DNA of 64,000 bases from Candidatus Microgenomates bacterium (lineage in GTDB: Bacteria > Patescibacteriota > JACPGU01), in contig JACPGU010000004.1 in the NCBI GenBank assembly GCA_016188915.1, forward strand, positions 40,198 to 104,197, written 5' to 3'. The stretch's first letter is position 1. The number at the start of each line of letters is the position of its first letter. The notes under the pieces are model-generated. The model was given only the letters and a program-made list of their open reading frames with translations. It was not told the DNA's origin and searched no databases. Position numbers and translations under genes: made by a program. Shown in pieces: positions 8,512 to 64,000 of this stretch.

Positions 8512-9771
8512 ATGGAAAAATTGATAATCTGTGGTGGGAAAAAATTAACAGGCAAGATTTCGGCATCTGGTTCTAAAAACGCGGCCCTACCTCTGATGGG
8601 GGCATCTATTTTGACCGATGAAAAAATAATATTACGAAAAGTGCCGGATTTGGCTGACATTCGCGTAATGATTAAGATATTGCAACATATCGGTAAAAAA
8701 ATATCTTTTCATGGTGGCGTAATGGAGATTGAGCGGGGGAAGGAGACCAAAACAGAGGCTCCTTACGAATTGGTCCGGCAAATGCGCGCCTCAATTATCG
8801 TTTTGGGACCGCTTTTGGCAAGATTTGGCCAATGCCGAGTTTCTTTGCCTGGCGGTTGCGCTTTTGGTCCGCGGCCGGTGGATTTGCATATCAAGGGTAT
8901 GGAAAATCTGGGGGCAAAAATAACTCTTAATCATGGCTATATCTCGGCTAGTGCTAAAAAATTAAAAGGCAAAGAGATGGTTTTGGCGGGAGAATTCGGC
9001 TCATCTGTTTTGGGAACCGACAATGTAATGATGGCGGCAACTTTGGCCGAGGGCAAAACCGTCATCAAAAGCGCGGCTCGTGAGCCAGAATGTGTTGATT
9101 TGGCGGGACTGCTCGTCTCTATGGGAGCCAAAATATCAGGGGCGGGGACAGATACCATCACTATTGAGGGAGTGGACGAATTGACCGGCGCTGACTATAC
9201 TATTATTCCGGACAGGATAGAGGTAGCAACTTATTTGGCGGCGGGAGTGGTGACAGGTGGAGAGGTAACGGTAGAAAATTGCCGTCCGGATCATTTGGAG
9301 AATCCTTTGGATTTTTTAAAAAAAGTAGGATTTGATATTATAAAAGATGAAAACAGCATAAAAATCAGCGGACAGGGCAGGTATCCTTTGAATATCGCTA
9401 CTGGGCCGTATCCTGGTTTTCCTACTGATTTGCAGGCTATTTTTACCGTTATTGCTTGCTTACTCCCAGGTGAAAGTCATATTTCGGAGGGCATTTATTT
9501 AGACAGATTTTCTCATATTTTGGAATTGGCGAGACTCGGAGCCAAAATAGAGTCCAAAGGTTCCAGCATCACCATCAAAGGCAAAAGCAAATTGACTGGC
9601 GCGCCTATCCAAGCCTCTGATTTGCGTTGTGGCGCGGCGCTGGCGCTGGCGGCCTTGATGGCTTGCAACACTACGGAGCTTGCCGGAGTCTATCATATAG
9701 ATAGGGGTTATGAAAATTTTGAAGAAAAACTGAGGAGTTTGGGGGCGGAGATAGAGAGGGAAGGGGATTAG
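8512..9771 (+). CDS. murA: UDP-N-acetylglucosamine 1-carboxyvinyltransferase MurA
   Basis: KNAALPLMGASILTDE, a catalytic Cys-containing PGGCAFGPRPVDLH region, and EPSP-synthase-fold repeats. Confidence 0.85.
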   Translation: MEKLIICGGKKLTGKISASGSKNAALPLMGASILTDEKIILRKVPDLADIRVMIKILQHIGKKISFHGGVMEIERGKETKTEAPYELVRQMRASIIVLGPLLARFGQCRVSLPGGCAFGPRPVDLHIKGMENLGAKITLNHGYISASAKKLKGKEMVLAGEFGSSVLGTDNVMMAATLAEGKTVIKSAAREPECVDLAGLLVSMGAKISGAGTDTITIEGVDELTGADYTIIPDRIEVATYLAAGVVTGGEVTVENCRPDHLENPLDFLKKVGFDIIKDENSIKISGQGRYPLNIATGPYPGFPTDLQAIFTVIACLLPGESHISEGIYLDRFSHILELARLGAKIESKGSSITIKGKSKLTGAPIQASDLRCGAALALAALMACNTTELAGVYHIDRGYENFEEKLRSLGAEIEREGD

Positions 9772-9780
9772 TTAATTTTT

Positions 9781-9870
9781 GAATTTTGTAATTTTTAATT
9801 TTTAAATAAATCTTAATTTTTAATGTTTAAAAATTTGAATTTAGAAATTATTTAAAAATTACAAAATTCA
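9781..9870. repeat. AT-only 18-bp perfect inverted repeat (GAATTTTGTAATTTTTAA / TTAAAAATTACAAAATTC) with about 54-bp spacer
   Basis: Read directly in the murA-glycosyltransferase intergenic region. Possibly a terminator or operator. Confidence 0.6.
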
Positions 9871-9881
9871 AAATTCTAAAT

Positions 9882-11015
9882 ATGCTCATAGGTATCGATG
9901 CGTCAAAAATAGGAGTGAAGGGAAAAACGGGCGTTGAAGAATACGCGACGCAGATTTTGCGTTATTTAATAAAAAATGACCGAACCAATCGCTATATTCT
10001 TTACGCTCCGCATGATATTAGTCCAGCCTTGGACAAACTGCCTGACAATTTTTCTCTAAAAATTATCTCCGCCCCTTTTTTTTGGACGCAGATAAGATTG
10101 GCGTGGCAGATTTGGAAAGACCATTTGGATTTATTTTTTACTCCCAGTTACGCGCCGCCAGTTTTTTGTTTTGTTCCTCATATTGCCGTTATCCATGATG
10201 TAGCCTTCCGTCTTTTTCCTGAAAATTATACCCTATTACAGAGAATGATTTTGGAGATTACTACCAGATTGGCAATAGGGCGCGCTAAAAAAATAATCAC
10301 TATCTCGCAGACGACAAAAAATGATCTAGTCCATCTATTTCGCGCTCAATCTTTGAAAATAGAAGTGACCTATTTGGGCTTTGACGACACAATGATTAAA
10401 TGGCGGCATTTTGACAAAAATGTTTGGGAAAATATCAGTGAAAAGTTTAACATCAAAAAACCCTATCTTTTATTCGTAGGGAGGATAGAGGGCAAAAAAA
10501 ATCTCGGCAATCTTCTGCAAGCTTTTTACAATCTATTGGCCGAAGGGCAAGATTTGCAAATGATTTTGGCGGGCAAAGACGGAGTGGGGGCGGATGAAGT
10601 GCGAGCGGTGGCCGCTAAATACAATCTAGACGACAAAGTGATTTTTACCGGATACATTAGCGAGGAAGAAAAAAAATATTTGCTTTCTCGTTGTCTTTGC
10701 TTTACTTTTGTTCCGAAATACGAAGGCTTTGGTATCCCCGTGCTGGAAGCGATGGCGATGAATATCCCAGTGGTAGCTTCGGACATTCCGGTTTTTCACG
10801 AATTGTACCGTGACGCGGTTATTTTGACCAAACCGGAAGATCCTGATGCTATCGCCTATGGAATAAAAAGTTTACTGGACGATCCAGAAAGAATAAAAAT
10901 TTTAAAAGAAAGAGGGAAAAAAATGGTCAAAGATTTTTCTTGGGACTATTGCGGAGAGAAGATTTTGAGTATAATAAATGAGGCTACTAAAGATAAAAAT
11001 GATAGGAGGATATAG
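9882..11015 (+). CDS. Glycosyltransferase family 1 (GT4-like)
   Basis: C-terminal EGFGIPVLEAMA motif and a Rossmann-like GT-B fold pattern. Confidence 0.7.
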   Translation: MLIGIDASKIGVKGKTGVEEYATQILRYLIKNDRTNRYILYAPHDISPALDKLPDNFSLKIISAPFFWTQIRLAWQIWKDHLDLFFTPSYAPPVFCFVPHIAVIHDVAFRLFPENYTLLQRMILEITTRLAIGRAKKIITISQTTKNDLVHLFRAQSLKIEVTYLGFDDTMIKWRHFDKNVWENISEKFNIKKPYLLFVGRIEGKKNLGNLLQAFYNLLAEGQDLQMILAGKDGVGADEVRAVAAKYNLDDKVIFTGYISEEEKKYLLSRCLCFTFVPKYEGFGIPVLEAMAMNIPVVASDIPVFHELYRDAVILTKPEDPDAIAYGIKSLLDDPERIKILKERGKKMVKDFSWDYCGEKILSIINEATKDKNDRRI

Positions 11016-41069: not shown

Positions 41070-41180
41070 CAAAAAGGGTCGCCCGATACAGCGGAGTCCC
41101 TTGCGAGCCTCCATGCACACTTTCGAGTGCATACCATATGCATGATACCGATCAGACGACCGTTTATATGCATGTGGTTT
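41070..41180. other. GC-richer structured noncoding segment (candidate small RNA or regulatory hairpins)
   Basis: ATGCAC..GTGCAT hairpin, repeated CATATGCATG / TATATGCATGTGG, ending in GGTTTTTTTGACC. Sits in the 300-bp gap between divergent genes. Confidence 0.2.
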
Positions 41181-41325
41181 TTTTGACCATGCTATCAACA
41201 AATAAGCTGATAGTTTAGGTCTTTTTTACGAATTGTAGCTATATTGTAGCATGGCTAAAAAGCAATGTAAAGTATCAAGGATTTAGTGATATACTTAGAA
41301 TAGAAATATTATTTTTTGTTTTAAT

Positions 41326-42190: not shown

Positions 42191-42582
42191 CCGTTCTCTG
42201 TAGATTAAGATTCTGGCAAATATTTTATTGGCAATCTCGGTTGTGTAAAGGTGAAAAGAAACAGAATATAGTTGAGCCCAACGGACGACCTGGGGTTCTG
42301 TTGTTTTATTTTGATTAGAATTTGTGGTATTATTCTCAATAGATTTAGACAACTAAGAGCTTTTTTAGCGACATAAATGTTGTCCAAAAATGGCTCTTGC
42401 GTAATGGCTGGGACATTGCTAACATACTGGCAGAAACCGGTGCTCGAATTATGAATATGAAAACTTGAGGTGTAGTAATCTGCTTTCTTTAAGAAAGCCT
42501 CTTGCACTTCACGATTCAATTCGTAATCCGAGCTTTTTTATTATTAAGCAAGAGAGGAGGACATAGCAAACTGGTCGATAAA

Positions 42583-42658
42583 ATATGAATATAAAATTAT
42601 GAATATCTAAATATGAATATGGGAGATTTATACTATTAAAGTTAGGAGATATTCATAT
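42583..42658. repeat. Four copies of the 10-bp motif ATATGAATAT (three direct at 14-bp spacing, one inverted) directly upstream of the second integrase start
   Basis: Read at 42583, 42597 and 42611, and inverted at 42649. Candidate arm-type or operator sites. Confidence 0.5.
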
Positions 42659-42659
42659 C

Positions 42660-43607
42660 ATGACTGATAAATCAAATAAAACATTGTTGCAATGGCACGA
42701 AGAGTTTTGTAGCATGCAACAACATGTTCGTGGATTGCGACCAGCCACTATTGATAGCTTCAGGAATACTTTCAGGGTATTCTCCAAGCTAACCTCAGAA
42801 GATCTTATGCCAGGTATGCTCACTAATGCTTTGATAATTCAATTTTTTACAAAATTGAACACAAGAGAGCGGAAGGTAGGCGTTACCGTTAAATCGGGGA
42901 TAAAGACAAGCACGACGAGCACTTATTACAGTAAGCTAAAGCCATTTTTTGACTATTTGGTCAGGCAGAAAATTATTGAGATAAGTCCATTTGACGGAAT
43001 AGATAAGCCAAAAGTATCGTATGAGGACGTAAAATATCTCAAAAAAGAACAAGTAGAAAAGATATTAACAGCAATCGCTCTTAATGTTGATTGGAAAAAT
43101 GATTTCATTAAAAGCAGAAATCTTGCAATGATCCACATATTATTGTTTACAGGCATCAGAAAAGGTGAGCTGTTAAATCTTAAAGTAACTGATTTTGATT
43201 TTAATACTGGGTTAGTAAAAGTAAATGGGCAAACATCAAAATCAAAAATAGATAGAGAAGTGCCGATAAACACTCGGATCATAAAGATAATCAAAAGCTA
43301 TCTTGCTGACAGAAAGGCATCTAACTGTCCTTTTTTCTTTGTTGGAGAAAGAGGAGAGCGTTTCACCGAATCGGGGCTAAAACACCTGATTGAGAAAATT
43401 AAAGACGCAAGCAATATTAGGTTTCATATTCATCAGTTCCGACATACTTTCGCAATGAATATGGTGAACAAGGGTTGCGATATAGCCAGACTCCAATGTC
43501 TAATGGGGCACAAGGATATTAGACAAACATCCGTATATCTTCGAAAAATGCCCTCAGTTATAGTTAGAAATACGATTGAGTTACTTGATATTGATACCTT
43601 GGTGTAG
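42660..43607 (+). CDS. Tyrosine-type site-specific recombinase/integrase (second copy)
   Basis: C-terminal HQFRHTFAMNMVNKGCDIARLQCLMGHKDIRQTSVYL. N-terminal SAM-like core-binding domain. Lies 250 bp from attR. Confidence 0.8.
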   Translation: MTDKSNKTLLQWHEEFCSMQQHVRGLRPATIDSFRNTFRVFSKLTSEDLMPGMLTNALIIQFFTKLNTRERKVGVTVKSGIKTSTTSTYYSKLKPFFDYLVRQKIIEISPFDGIDKPKVSYEDVKYLKKEQVEKILTAIALNVDWKNDFIKSRNLAMIHILLFTGIRKGELLNLKVTDFDFNTGLVKVNGQTSKSKIDREVPINTRIIKIIKSYLADRKASNCPFFFVGERGERFTESGLKHLIEKIKDASNIRFHIHQFRHTFAMNMVNKGCDIARLQCLMGHKDIRQTSVYLRKMPSVIVRNTIELLDIDTLV

Positions 43608-43857: not shown

Positions 43858-43899
43858 ATGGTAAGGAAAAGGTCACCGGTTCAAATCCGGTCGATGGCT
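43858..43899 (+). pseudogene. 3' half of split tRNA-Thr(GGT): ATGGTAA core (attR), anticodon stem 3' strand, variable loop, T-arm, acceptor
   Basis: ATGGTAA GGAAA AGGTC ACCGG TTCAAAT CCGGT CGATGGC T. It complements the 5' half at 27957-27994 exactly. Confidence 0.75.
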
Positions 43900-43902
43900 T
43901 TG

Positions 43903-43954
43903 GCCACCTTAGCTCAGTCGGTTAGCCTCCGGCCCGGAGGGAGCAACCGCCTTG
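43903..43954 (+). pseudogene. 5' half of a second, decayed split tRNA (Thr-like body) with a 15-nt hairpin inserted in the D-loop
   Basis: GCCACCT TA GCTC AGTCGGTTAG [CCTCCGGCCCGGAGG] GAGC A ACCGC CTTG... The acceptor pairs with AGGTGGC at 44094-44100. Confidence 0.5.
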
Positions 43955-43972
43955 CCCGCCCGCCAAAAACTT

Positions 43973-44045
43973 GCCATCCTAGCTCAGTTGGTAGAGCAGC
44001 CGCCTTGTAAGCGGCAGGTCATCGGTTCGAGCCCGATGGATGGCT
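43973..44045 (+). tRNA. tRNA-Thr(TGT), intact, nested between the two halves of the decayed tRNA
   Basis: GCCATCC TA GCTC AGTTGGTA GAGC A GCCGC CTTGTAA GCGGC AGGTC ATCGG TTCGAGC CCGAT GGATGGC T. Confidence 0.75.
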
Positions 44046-44057
44046 TTGGCAAGTCGG

Positions 44058-44101
44058 GCGCGGTAAGCGGTAGGTCGTCGGTTCGAGCCCGACAGGTGGC
44101 T
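44058..44101 (+). pseudogene. 3' half of the second split tRNA (anticodon stem 3' strand, variable loop, T-arm, acceptor)
   Basis: ...CGGTAA GCGGT AGGTC GTCGG TTCGAGC CCGAC AGGTGGC T. Confidence 0.5.
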
Positions 44102-44146
44102 TTAGGACAAATTAATACTTAATACTTAATACTTAATACAAACTAT

Positions 44147-44317: not shown

Positions 44318-44423
44318 TAAAAAATTTCTAATTTCCAATTATTAATTTCTAGAAAAATCCCAAATTCTACTTACGCAATGGGTCTTTTTGAGATTTTGTA
44401 TTTGTGTTTGAGATTTTAAAGTG

Positions 44424-61715: not shown

Positions 61716-62342
61716 ATGCCCAAAACAAACAAAAAAAATGGATTTACTTTGATAGAGCTTTTGGTGGCAACGGCTATTTTTGCTACTTTTGTTACGGTCT
61801 CATCTAGATTCTTGGTTAATGTGGTGCGGCTAGAACAAAAAGCCAATGTTTTGCGCCAAACCCAGCAAGACACGCGCTATGTTTTAGAATCCATCATGCG
61901 CGAGGCCAAGACGGCTAACGGAGAATTTGACAACAAGATATCGGCTAACGGAAGGCGCAAAATACACGCCTATCAATATGAGCCGTTGACCGGAACGCCG
62001 AATAAATTTGTTATTTATACTACTGATTTTACTAATAATCAGGTATGGAAAATGGTTTATTCTTGGAGCGGGGGAGTAGTCTCGATAGAAAAATACAAAA
62101 AATCTCTTGGGACGATTGGCGCTACCTATGCTTTGGTCTCGCAGACTCCCTTAAACGATGTTAATTATACCTATGTGGATAAATTTTCTTTTGCCGTAAG
62201 CGGGCTGTCTTCTGATTTGAGTTTGCCGCCCAGAGTGGCTATTACTATTGAAGCTTCCAGCGCGCCGAGCAAAACATCTGATAGCAAAATTTTGCAGGCC
62301 AAAACAGTTTTGGTATCTTCGGCAACTTCTCGCAGCTATTAA
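61716..62342 (+). CDS. Type IV pilin-like pseudopilin / minor pilin
   Basis: MPKTNKKNG|FTLIELLVATAIF. The track ORF start at 61680 is an upstream extension. Confidence 0.7.
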   Translation: MPKTNKKNGFTLIELLVATAIFATFVTVSSRFLVNVVRLEQKANVLRQTQQDTRYVLESIMREAKTANGEFDNKISANGRRKIHAYQYEPLTGTPNKFVIYTTDFTNNQVWKMVYSWSGGVVSIEKYKKSLGTIGATYALVSQTPLNDVNYTYVDKFSFAVSGLSSDLSLPPRVAITIEASSAPSKTSDSKILQAKTVLVSSATSRSY

Positions 62343-62344
62343 AT

Positions 62345-62379
62345 ATGAATTATGAATTATGAATCGTGAATTATGAATA
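62345..62379. repeat. Tandem heptamer repeat (ATGAATT)x5. Its inverted partner (AATTCAT)x4-5 lies at 62750-62780.
   Basis: atgaattatgaattatgaatcgtgaattatgaata, and on the other side aattcataactcataattcatgattcatcat. The 4HB gene's start and stop codons and the rnhA start codon all lie inside these repeats. Confidence 0.7.
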
Positions 62380-62765
62380 GTTCAAAAGACAAAATAAAAT
62401 CTTTTACCGATCTTAATGCATGGAAAGAAGCGCATAAATTGGTGTTAATGGTTTACAGAATAACAAAAAAAATTCCGTCAGAAGAATTGTTTTGTCTAAC
62501 GAGTCAAATCAGAAGGGCAACTATATCTATAACTTCCAATATCGCAGAGGGATTTAGCAGAAATTTCAATAAAGAAAAAGCGCAATTTTATACTGTAGCA
62601 TTGGGGTCCTTGACTGAATTGCAGAATCAAATTTTAGCTGCTCGAGATATAGGCTATATACCAAAAGAAGATTTCACTTTAATGGCTGATCAAACGATAG
62701 TGGTGAGTAAGCTCATAAACGGGCTAATCAAATCTACTCGCAATAACATAATTCATAACTCATAA
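62373..62765 (+). CDS. Four-helix-bundle protein (family typically found inside 23S rRNA intervening sequences)
   Basis: Central SQIRRATISITSNIAEGFSRNF motif and length of about 130 aa match the 'four helix bundle / 23S rRNA IVS protein' family. Confidence 0.6.
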   Translation: MNSSKDKIKSFTDLNAWKEAHKLVLMVYRITKKIPSEELFCLTSQIRRATISITSNIAEGFSRNFNKEKAQFYTVALGSLTELQNQILAARDIGYIPKEDFTLMADQTIVVSKLINGLIKSTRNNIIHNS

Positions 62766-62768
62766 TTC

Positions 62769-63164
62769 ATGATTCATCATTTATATTCCGATGGAGGATC
62801 TAGGGGCAATCCGGGCAAAGCGGCGGGCGCTTTTGTTATTAAAAAAGATGAAAAAATAGTGGCGGAGGGCAGTATTTTTTTAGGCACAGCGACCAATAAT
62901 AAGGCTGAATACGCTGGATTGATTTTGGGCCTGGAAAAACTTTCCAGTCTCACCAAGGGGGAGGTGAGATGTTTTTTGGACAGCGAATTGGTGGTGAAGC
63001 AATTAAAAGGCGAATATCGGATCAAAGACGAGGGGCTAAAACCGCTTTTTGCCAAAGTCGTTCAGCTAAAAAATAATTTTGAAAAAATAACCTTCACCCA
63101 TATCAGAAGAGAAAAAAATAAAGAAGCAGATTTTTTAGTGAATAAAGAATTGGATAATAATTAG
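62769..63164 (+). CDS. rnhA: Ribonuclease HI
   Basis: Catalytic DEDD pattern: YSDGGSRGNPG (D), NNKAEYAGL (E), CFLDSELVV (D), NKEADFLV (D). Confidence 0.6.
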   Translation: MIHHLYSDGGSRGNPGKAAGAFVIKKDEKIVAEGSIFLGTATNNKAEYAGLILGLEKLSSLTKGEVRCFLDSELVVKQLKGEYRIKDEGLKPLFAKVVQLKNNFEKITFTHIRREKNKEADFLVNKELDNN

Positions 63165-63168
63165 CTTT

Positions 63169-63564
63169 ATGAGTAGAAAAATTATTTTTGTTATCGTGAG
63201 CCTAATTTTAATCCTTTCCATCGGCTTGCCCTACGCTATGCCCTATCTGGAAGATTTGCAAACTGATGTGGAAGAAACAGCCGATACTTTGGAGGAGAGA
63301 AAGCAGAAGAGCGAAAAAACAGCGGAGCAAAAAGGGCTGGAAGGGACAGTGCGTAAACTGGAAGCCTCTATCTATCAGCAGGGAACGCATTATTTGGAGG
63401 CAGATGGAATAACACTAGCTCTTTTGGAGTCTAGCTCGGGCATAAATTTGGATAGATATATTGGCAGAAACATTGTTGTTTATGGCACGCCTCGCCAGAC
63501 AGTAGAGGGCGACGGGGTGATTATTGATGTAGAAAGGGTAATCTCTCCTAACGTCGAACGTTAG
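63169..63564 (+). CDS. Small secreted hypothetical protein
   Basis: Signal-anchor IIFVIVSLILILSIGLPYA. A 9-bp perfect hairpin (CTCCTAACG tcga CGTTAGGAG) overlaps its stop. Confidence 0.35.
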   Translation: MSRKIIFVIVSLILILSIGLPYAMPYLEDLQTDVEETADTLEERKQKSEKTAEQKGLEGTVRKLEASIYQQGTHYLEADGITLALLESSSGINLDRYIGRNIVVYGTPRQTVEGDGVIIDVERVISPNVER

Positions 63565-63603
63565 GAGATTTACGTTGGCCCCTAAACGCTGTATAATATA
63601 GCC

Positions 63604-64000
63604 ATGCAAGCCGATGAAATCTTGAAGGGGCTCAACCCCGAGCAGAGAGAGGCCGTAGTGTATAACGACGGACCACTTTTGATTGTGGCAGGAGCGGGGA
63701 CGGGGAAAACAGGCGTTATTACTGCCAAAATAGCTTATTTAGTAGCGGAGAAAAAAGCCAAAGCATCGGAAATTTTGGCTCTTACTTTTACCAAAAAAGC
63801 GGCTTACGAGATGGAAGAAAGGGTGGACATTCTCCTGCCCTATGGCTACAACGATGTCAAAATTGCCACCTTCCACTCCTTTGCCGAAGAATTTTTGCGG
63901 GAAAATGCTTATTCTTTAGGGTTTTCTACTAATTTTCAATTGCTCTCCGATACGGCGCAAGTGATGTTTATAAGAGAGCATATTTTTGATTTTGACCTGA
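63604..64000 (+). CDS. uvrD: UvrD/PcrA-family DNA helicase (N-terminal part, continues beyond the window)
   Basis: LNPEQREAVVYNDGPLLIVAGAGTGKTGVITAKIAYL (motif I). A TATAAT lies 6 nt before the ATG, which suggests a leaderless transcript. Confidence 0.7.
   Translation, partial: MQADEILKGLNPEQREAVVYNDGPLLIVAGAGTGKTGVITAKIAYLVAEKKAKASEILALTFTKKAAYEMEERVDILLPYGYNDVKIATFHSFAEEFLRENAYSLGFSTNFQLLSDTAQVMFIREHIFDFDL

Follow-up and report, generated by a model that had tools for sequence, protein, structure and literature searches.

Why should a small open reading frame (ORF) inside an operon be framed by tandem heptamers that run in opposite directions at its two ends? The question is raised by a 64-kb stretch of DNA (contig JACPGU010000004.1; "the window" below denotes this whole stretch) from a Candidatus Microgenomates genome within the Candidate Phyla Radiation (CPR/Patescibacteria), in which a gene for a 130-aa four-helix-bundle protein lies between a pilin-like gene and rnhA. 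A preliminary description of the sequence had compared this unit with the intervening sequences (IVSs) of 23S rRNA. The unit is no isolated curiosity: bracketing by inverted heptamer arrays is the rule for this gene family, and the locus is one instance of it. For the locus itself we hold it probable, though not by much, that the unit is an IVS-type cassette that lacks a promoter, is mobile over evolutionary time and sits in an mRNA operon, with arms that can pair and that RNase III would cut, by IVS precedent.

The cassette and its arrays

The locus comprises the following features (evidence in brackets).

61716–62342, plus strand: pilin-like gene with an N-terminal methylation motif (PF07963; 208-aa gene call in the duplicate locus L001)
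62337–62785, plus strand: whole cassette as a predicted RNA stem-loop enclosing the ORF (folding of the arms and of the full unit)
62345–62379, plus strand: 5′ heptamer array, ATGAATT ATGAATT ATGAATC GTGAATT ATGAATA (Tandem Repeats Finder (TRF), sequence, pattern search)
62373–62765, plus strand: four-helix-bundle gene, 130 aa (PF05635, TIGR02436)
62747–62785, plus strand: 3′ heptamer array, CATAATT CATAACT CATAATT CATGATT CATCATT TATAT (TRF, inverted repeat, sequence)
62769–63164, plus strand: rnhA, RNase HI family (PF13456, PF00075; orthologues and synteny)
63544–63568, plus strand: terminator-like hairpin after the next gene, 63169–63564 (consensus scan)

The pilin-like gene, the third of three in a type IV pilus-like operon, ends with TAA at 62340–62342, and the first 5′ heptamer follows after a gap of 2 nt (AT). 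TRF placed the 5′ array at 62344–62378 (period 7, 5.0 copies, 85% matches, unit TATGAAT) and the 3′ array at 62747–62785 (period 7, 5.6 copies, 81% matches, unit CATAATT). The 3′ array is the inverse of the 5′ array, and a repeat finder joined them as an inverted repeat with arms of 39 nt (62337–62375 and 62747–62785) that are 82% complementary. The start ATG of the four-helix-bundle gene (62373) falls in the fifth 5′ heptamer and its stop TAA (62763–62765) in a CATAATT unit of the 3′ array, whereby the arrays encode both ends of the protein (N-terminal MN.., C-terminal IIHNS). The ATG of rnhA (62769), 3 nt past the cassette stop codon, lies inside the CATGATT unit, and the first ~5 rnhA codons are encoded by the 3′ array. 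All three frames of the 5′ array contain ATG and TGA, and TAA is present in all three frames of the 3′ array; thus the flanking genes stay closed and can start within an array, as rnhA does. The preliminary description, which had placed (ATGAATT)x5 and its inverse around the gene and all three of these codons within the repeats, was accurate on each point, and the inverse array can now be delimited to 62747–62785. The 14-mer ATGAATTATGAATT, allowing at most two mismatches, had nine matches in the window, with 2.2 expected, and eight of the nine were at the cassette locus. As had also been claimed, the cassette is not inside a 23S gene: Rfam found no rRNA in the window, and the flanks are protein-coding genes.

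The 130-aa protein matched PF05635 with 119.9 bits (cutoff 33.8, E = 7e-35) and TIGR02436 with 114.7 bits (cutoff 24), and it is 100% identical to the NCBI entry [quoted passage not shown]. Among solved structures, the nearest to it is XCC0516 from Xanthomonas campestris (PDB 2GSC, E = 5e-21 over residues 12–121), which has been described as a homopentamer built of four-helix bundles (Lin 2006, cited in PMC4990558). No family of the PADLOC defence models matched the protein at E ≤ 0.01, and membership of a defence system was rejected on this ground.

Could the gene instead encode the Avd accessory protein of a diversity-generating retroelement (DGR), with the repeats as part of that element? 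PF05635 is the commonest Pfam family near DGR reverse transcriptases (PMC10053308), and the protein did match the bAvd-like PF22296 (22.1 bits) and NF033474 (20.5 bits) weakly, but these scores are far under the respective cutoffs of 40 and 80. Moreover, the neighbours (pilin-like genes, RNase HI, a 131-aa protein and a UvrD-like helicase) include no reverse transcriptase, no template/variable repeat pair was seen at the locus, and the 78 relatives described below adjoin unrelated housekeeping genes. We rejected the Avd identity because of the sub-threshold scores and the neighbourhood free of reverse transcriptase, and we give the DGR explanation almost no chance. What the two proteins would share is the homologous four-helix-bundle fold and the pentameric ring. 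One preprint describes Avd as working in a ribonucleoprotein with structured flanking RNA (bioRxiv 10.1101/2023.10.23.563531), whereas the cassette has neither an adjacent reverse transcriptase nor template/variable repeats. We must also note that the Pfam overview of the window comprised the best 25 of 62 families, and an RNase III or a reverse transcriptase may be encoded elsewhere in it.

Distribution, operon setting and turnover

The arrangement was examined in 79 loci from GTDB genomes that encode CPR relatives with 58–73% identity. For each gene, the start-codon region was aligned to the reverse complement of the stop-codon region and scored against shuffles; the resulting count of 78 genes leaves out the window and its duplicate, L001. 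A bracketing inverted repeat better than all shuffles was present in 65 of the 78 relatives (83%), and 67% of the 78 reached a score of at least 30; among 221 control genes in the same loci, the figures were 11% and 4%. With few exceptions, the arms were heptamers in phase, (GAATnAn)n or (GTATnAn)n on the upstream side and the inverse of these on the downstream side, with the consensus G[A/T]AT[T/C]AN and a mode of four units per arm. Lag-7 autocorrelation reached 0.48–0.50 in both flanks, compared with 0.25 in the ORF interior. The heptamer types at the 5′ and 3′ ends of one gene were concordant in 59 cases and discordant in none, and protein clade loosely tracked heptamer type, with a nearest neighbour of the same type in 57/71. 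Three CPR loci (L010, L054 and L065) hold two family members within a few kb, in the same operon. At L010 each copy has its own arrays, which implies multiple cassettes per genome.

Where the neighbours were co-directional, the cassette gene was in sense in 63 CPR loci and antisense in two (p = 1e-16; baseline co-orientation of adjacent genes 77%). Median gaps to the neighbours were 25 and 20 nt, compared with a baseline of 65 nt, meaning that the neighbours end and begin at or inside the arrays. These neighbours are diverse and unrelated housekeeping genes, among them ATP synthase gamma, folA, thyA, glyA, secF, pyrG and lexA. In the window, a consensus scan showed that nothing resembling a promoter or a terminator separates the pilin-like gene from the cassette or the cassette from rnhA, which makes the cassette a promoter-less insert in an operon junction. 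The hairpin at 63544–63568 is probably the end of the transcription unit that carries it. Beyond it, a promoter-like site lies at 63569–63607, with the end of its TATAAT 7 nt ahead of the start ATG (63605) for the UvrD-like helicase; this spacing suggests that the helicase mRNA is leaderless or near-leaderless. Two further settings were rejected. Rfam detected no rRNA in the 16 CPR loci with large flanking gaps, which disposes of an rRNA location for those relatives, and a search of the viral contigs turned up no relative, which speaks against phage carriage.

The preliminary description had suggested a mobile cassette and a comparison of the region upstream of rnhA in related genomes, and this comparison was made. 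The nearest rnhA orthologue (78%), in L081 (GCA_964355795.1), lies in a fully syntenic region with the order T2SSE, T2SSF, pilin, prepilin peptidase, three pilin-like genes, rnhA, small protein, UvrD-like helicase and RmuC, but without the cassette. There, 23 nt separate the TAA of the pilin-like gene from the rnhA ATG, and this gap, together with the first rnhA codons, forms a period-7 array of the 3′-arm type (AAGATTT AAGATTC ACGATTT ATGATTT ACGAATT). In L087 (rnhA 74%) the cassette is present with the same 3′ arm as in the window. In L085 (rnhA 62%) the same junction holds a 118-aa family member that is 47% identical to the window protein and has different heptamers (TAAGTAG / CTTACTA); the rnhA ATG is again within the 3′ array. 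The best protein relatives of the window cassette (73–76% identity) are found in other CPR lineages, hence the relationships of the cassettes do not follow those of their hosts. By rnhA distance, the window goes with L081 (73.8% nucleotide identity, versus 68.9% and 68.0%), while the gene downstream of rnhA pairs L081 with L087. Since neither gene makes the cassette-bearing genomes sisters, the comparison favours loss in L081, with one array left as a scar. The presence/absence and replacement polymorphism at this junction fits a mobile cassette that would have been gained, lost and replaced over evolutionary time, and in this respect the suggested mobility gained support. More distant rnhA homologues stand in other contexts with no cassette, indicating no functional tie to rnhA; together with the diverse neighbours of the 78 relatives, they led us to reject a specific link between the two genes.

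The same packaging recurs in other phyla and was seen in at least five altogether. In Xanthomonas arboricola, X. sacchari and Dyella (L088–L095), homologues of XCC0516 lie in sense between accB and accC, with a (GGGAATC)-type array of four units upstream and its inverse downstream; the 3′ array adjoins the ATG of accC. These arrays are the published GGGAATC repeats of Xanthomonas, of which 186 arrays, mostly of four units and with 70 convergent pairs, have been reported as unexplained and possibly G-quadruplex-forming (PMC4692102). Inverted period-7 arrays also flank plasmid-borne homologues in Nostoc (CAGGAGT), Geminocystis (GGGAAAA) and Riemerella (GGTTYAA), and the Calothrix copy has an array at its 3′ end only. 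On a Picosynechococcus plasmid (L099) the gene lies in sense between cas10 and cmr3, within inverted GGAGATA arrays; on a Pseudanabaena plasmid (L098) it lies in sense between cas6 and cas4, with long AAAGCYA arrays of more than 10 units. Such wedging between cas genes may explain why one study reportedly lists the four-helix-bundle family among CRISPR-associated genes.

A homologue in Azospirillum lipoferum is located inside a 23S rRNA gene (Rfam large-subunit (LSU) model, 2172 bits), with the conserved helix-45 flanks CCGAAGCUGCGGAU and GUGGUAGCGGAGCGUUC on either side. The predicted fold pairs its two arms, which consist of five (ACRGAGG) heptamers and of the inverse of these. A genuine ORF-bearing IVS is thus built like the window cassette, in agreement with the likeness to 23S IVSs that had been proposed. 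Across phyla, the gene and the 7-nt period are constant and inversion of the arrays is usual, while the heptamer sequence varies. A universal GAAT core as the recognition motif, to which CPR bacteria and Xanthomonas had pointed, was rejected because the cyanobacterial, Riemerella and Azospirillum heptamers are unrelated to it.

Arrays of this kind also occur without the gene. Across 445 kb of CPR loci, a phased-core scan detected 67 more phased G[AT]AT arrays away from any cassette. Of these, 30 are grouped into 15 closely spaced convergent pairs, i.e. small hairpins, and in 57 of 60 comparisons the type of the gene-less array was that of the cassette in the same locus. With the heptamer that they share with the cassettes, these dispersed arrays are candidates for scars or landing pads.

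Possible roles of the arrays

In common with the IVSs of Leptospira, Coxiella (S23p) and Azospirillum, the cassette carries the same protein family, has a size of ~430 nt and places terminal inverted arms around the ORF. The Coxiella IVS has a 28-bp terminal stem (4 x 7), at which RNase III excises it in vitro (PMC4990558). The window cassette differs in residing in an mRNA operon and in arrays that also supply the start and stop codons of the neighbours, and RNase III excision has been demonstrated for rRNA IVSs only. A study of CPR bacteria notes 23S_rRNA_IVP ORFs in rRNA insertions and does not describe their termini (PMC11270868). As the unit is not in rRNA, scores under the Avd cutoffs and shows no transposase domain, we file it as an IVS-type cassette in an mRNA context.

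The mechanism that we propose begins with transcription by read-through from the host operon, which the sense bias, the tiny gaps to the neighbours and the lack of promoter or terminator signals make plausible. In the transcript, the two arrays would zip into a ~33-bp imperfect duplex around the ORF. The arms alone were predicted to fold to −31.4 kcal/mol (z = −7.5), and the predicted fold of the full unit retained the terminal stem; the folding prediction proposed in the preliminary description thus gave a long stem. By analogy with rRNA IVSs, RNase III could cut the arm duplex, free the cassette RNA and uncouple the flanking cistrons. The AT-rich heptamers, with start and stop codons in all frames, meanwhile keep the neighbouring genes properly terminated and initiated, as the sequence shows.

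Several observations weigh against this reading. On the side of mobility, the window contains a single PF05635-family copy, domain searches found no transposase domain in the cassette protein, and no target-site duplication was readable at the empty and filled sites, whose junctions are repetitive. The accB-accC position is kept across two Xanthomonadales families, unlike the turnover in CPR bacteria, and it marks the Xanthomonadales gene as a long-term resident rather than an active mobile element. On the side of the stem, no RNase III gene was located in this genome among the best 25 of 62 Pfam families in the window overview, and in Pseudanabaena, as similarly in the Nostoc PCC 7120 copy, the arrays are direct on both sides, so that pairing is impossible. 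On the sense strand, G:U mismatches were not in excess over A:C mismatches (38 vs 51), the order of heptamer variants was not mirrored between the arms (343 observed, 346 unit-permuted, z = −0.5), the unit numbers of the two arms were uncorrelated, and a gene's own partner arm was only modestly better than same-type arms of other loci (36.8 vs 31.2). Selection on the stem at the RNA level was rejected on the negative G:U/A:C and mirrored-order tests, and we claim no structure supported by compensatory covariation. The arms are complementary because both are built of one heptamer set in opposite orientation, and the missing G:U excess, the unmirrored order and the direct arrays suggest that the heptamer array itself may be what is conserved.

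It is therefore worth asking whether the arrays are primarily putative binding sites (iteron- or TRAP-like), on RNA or DNA, for a protein, most plausibly the encoded ring pentamer, with approximately one heptamer per subunit. The pairing of the arms would then be incidental, the gene would be autoregulated via its own flanking arrays, and the same protein would act on gene-less arrays near gene ends; this explanation, which we consider possible yet doubtful, partly overlaps with the cassette reading, and the two may hold together. The last three observations above fit it, as does the constancy of period 7 in five phyla while the sequence varies (GAATTAT, GTATTAT, TAAGTAG, GGGAATC, CAGGAGT, GGAGATA, GGTTYAA, ACRGAGG, GGGAAAA, AAAGCYA). 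The modal four to five units per arm, four also in Xanthomonas (PMC4692102), lie near the five subunits of the XCC0516 homopentamer (Lin 2006 as cited in PMC4990558), and solo arrays match the local cassette type (57/60). In addition, the core residue at window-protein position 66 tracks heptamer type (mutual information relative to entropy, MI/H, 0.65 vs 0.34 for the null 95th percentile, uncorrected for phylogeny), but the window protein itself is an exception at this position. Protein clade follows heptamer type only loosely (57/71 nearest neighbours), some arrays far exceed five units, as in Pseudanabaena (>10), and the strong inverted-orientation rule in CPR bacteria and IVSs would be left unexplained. 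A quite different view treats the arrays as neutral, slippage-prone heptanucleotide microsatellites in AT-rich intergenic DNA around an ordinary resident gene, with no cassette at all. Among long simple sequence repeats (SSRs), heptanucleotides are reported to be the most abundant class in many bacteria (Mrazek 2007, cited in PMC4679880 and PMC4692102), the TRF table of the window has more rows with period 7 than with any other, and the uncorrelated unit numbers would be expected. This view is strongly disfavoured, and we regard it as very improbable: in five phyla, and regardless of GC content, arrays mark both ends of one gene family; similar features occur at only 4–11% of control genes; both arms are invariably of one type, with inverted orientation in nearly every case; and the accB-accC arrays persist from Xanthomonas to Dyella at ~70% protein identity. 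The preliminary description had proposed a search for other loci and held that a repeat common throughout the genome would speak against its interpretation. The exact ATGAATT array has no second occurrence within the 64-kb window, which upholds the cassette, but arrays of the same heptamers that lack the gene are frequent in related genomes, which in part goes the other way.

The promoter-less mobile cassette can further be compared with known repeat-borne elements. RAYT genes (tyrosine transposases associated with repetitive extragenic palindromic (REP) sequences) typically have inverted REP sequences on both sides, and these sequences are also found scattered across the genome. The cassette resembles them as a small gene between inverted copies of a repeat that is scattered in the genome, often as hairpin pairs; in both, the repeat type is genome-specific, and for the cassette the dispersal is seen in related CPR loci (the 67 gene-less arrays in 445 kb). 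RAYT proteins, in contrast, are HUH tyrosine transposases, while no nuclease or recombinase domain is recognisable in the four-helix-bundle protein; an HUH (Y1) transposase is not encoded, the profile matches being to four-helix-bundle families only. REP sequences are also single palindromes, whereas the cassette repeats are tandem heptamers. Correia elements of Neisseria are miniature inverted-repeat elements that are co-transcribed with operons and cut by RNase III. They share with the cassette the insertion between co-transcribed genes, but they have no ORF, their terminal inverted repeats are defined ones and a TA target is duplicated, where the cassette has no detectable target-site duplication. 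Measured against insertion sequences and miniature inverted-repeat transposable elements, the cassette has the inverted termini and the presence/absence polymorphism.

Published heptanucleotide arrays include GGGAATC in Xanthomonas, GGGGAYT and the short tandemly repeated repetitive (STRR) sequences in Nostoc/Calothrix, and TAACTGA in Beggiatoaceae, cyanobacteria and Bacteroidetes. They are like the cassette arrays in typically having ~4 tandem 7-nt units, in an intergenic position beside the ends of co-directional genes and in often forming convergent pairs (PMC4692102, PMC4679880). They have been treated as G-quadruplex motifs or translational signals and tied to no gene, whereas here a specific gene is bracketed. 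In open-access full texts we found no link between heptamer arrays and the PF05635/TIGR02436 family, and no array-bounded cassette wedged in an operon. Each component is known: the protein family, the heptamer arrays, and the rRNA IVS with inverted repeats at its termini. Their packaging together is apparently undescribed. Period-7 arrays enclose the gene in CPR bacteria, Gamma- and Alphaproteobacteria, Cyanobacteria and Bacteroidota, in rRNA and in ordinary operons. Two puzzles that are decades old thus meet, the conserved ORF of 23S IVSs and the excess of tandem heptanucleotides (STRR, GGGAATC, Beggiatoa TAACTGA). We also entertain, as a speculation that is rather unlikely as a whole, that TIGR02436 pentamers and tandem heptamer arrays constitute one widespread protein-repeat system, in which the ring binds approximately one heptamer per subunit, the gene travels and is regulated between arrays, and solo arrays (Xanthomonas GGGAATC, cyanobacterial STRR-type, CPR GAAT/GTAT) are targets or scars. 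If true, such a system would account at once for what the IVS/S23p protein does and for the heptanucleotide excess in bacterial genomes. Pentamer-array binding, RNase III cutting of the arms and the status of solo arrays as scars or landing pads have become testable questions. On the practical side, start codons downstream of such cassettes lie in repeat DNA.

Other repeats in the window

One other G[AT]AT array was detected in the window.

44112–44139, minus strand: solo array (TTAATAC)x4, i.e. (GTATTAA)x4 on the minus strand (phased-core scan)

It has no inverted partner and ends 8 nt upstream of the codon at which rpmG (L33) starts; an array of a different heptamer, (AATTTCT)x4, follows the rpmG stop codon at 44323–44351. 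Single arrays beside start codons, as at rpmG, recall the residual array of the empty L081 site. A gene-less palindrome with 52-nt arms (79% complementary) lies at 9777–9880, between the co-directional ORFs 8512–9768 and 9882–11012, and is composed of the AT-rich period-7 units GAATTTT, GTAATTT and TTAATTT. It may be a solo version of the cassette arms, or a terminator.

The preliminary description had also likened the arrays to a repeat near an integrase. That repeat, at 42578–42620 upstream of ORF 42660–43604, consists of three direct copies of approximately AAATATGAATAT at a spacing of 13–14 nt. The likeness proved superficial, and a kinship with the cassette arms was rejected: the repeat is neither period-7 nor inverted, and shares ATGAAT alone. 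Just downstream of the same ORF, at 43860–44105, a tRNA gene (43973–44045) lies between two extra tRNA 3′-end-like fragments, GGTTCAAATCCGGTCGATGGCTTTGG and GGTTCGAGCCCGACAGGTGGCTTT, a pattern typical for the integration sites of integrase-bearing islands. The Pfam matches in the window include two Phage_integrase proteins and one Resolvase. Finally, Rfam matched LOOT RNA (RF03000) at 41093–41221 on the minus strand, with 68.5 bits against a gathering score of 46.4.

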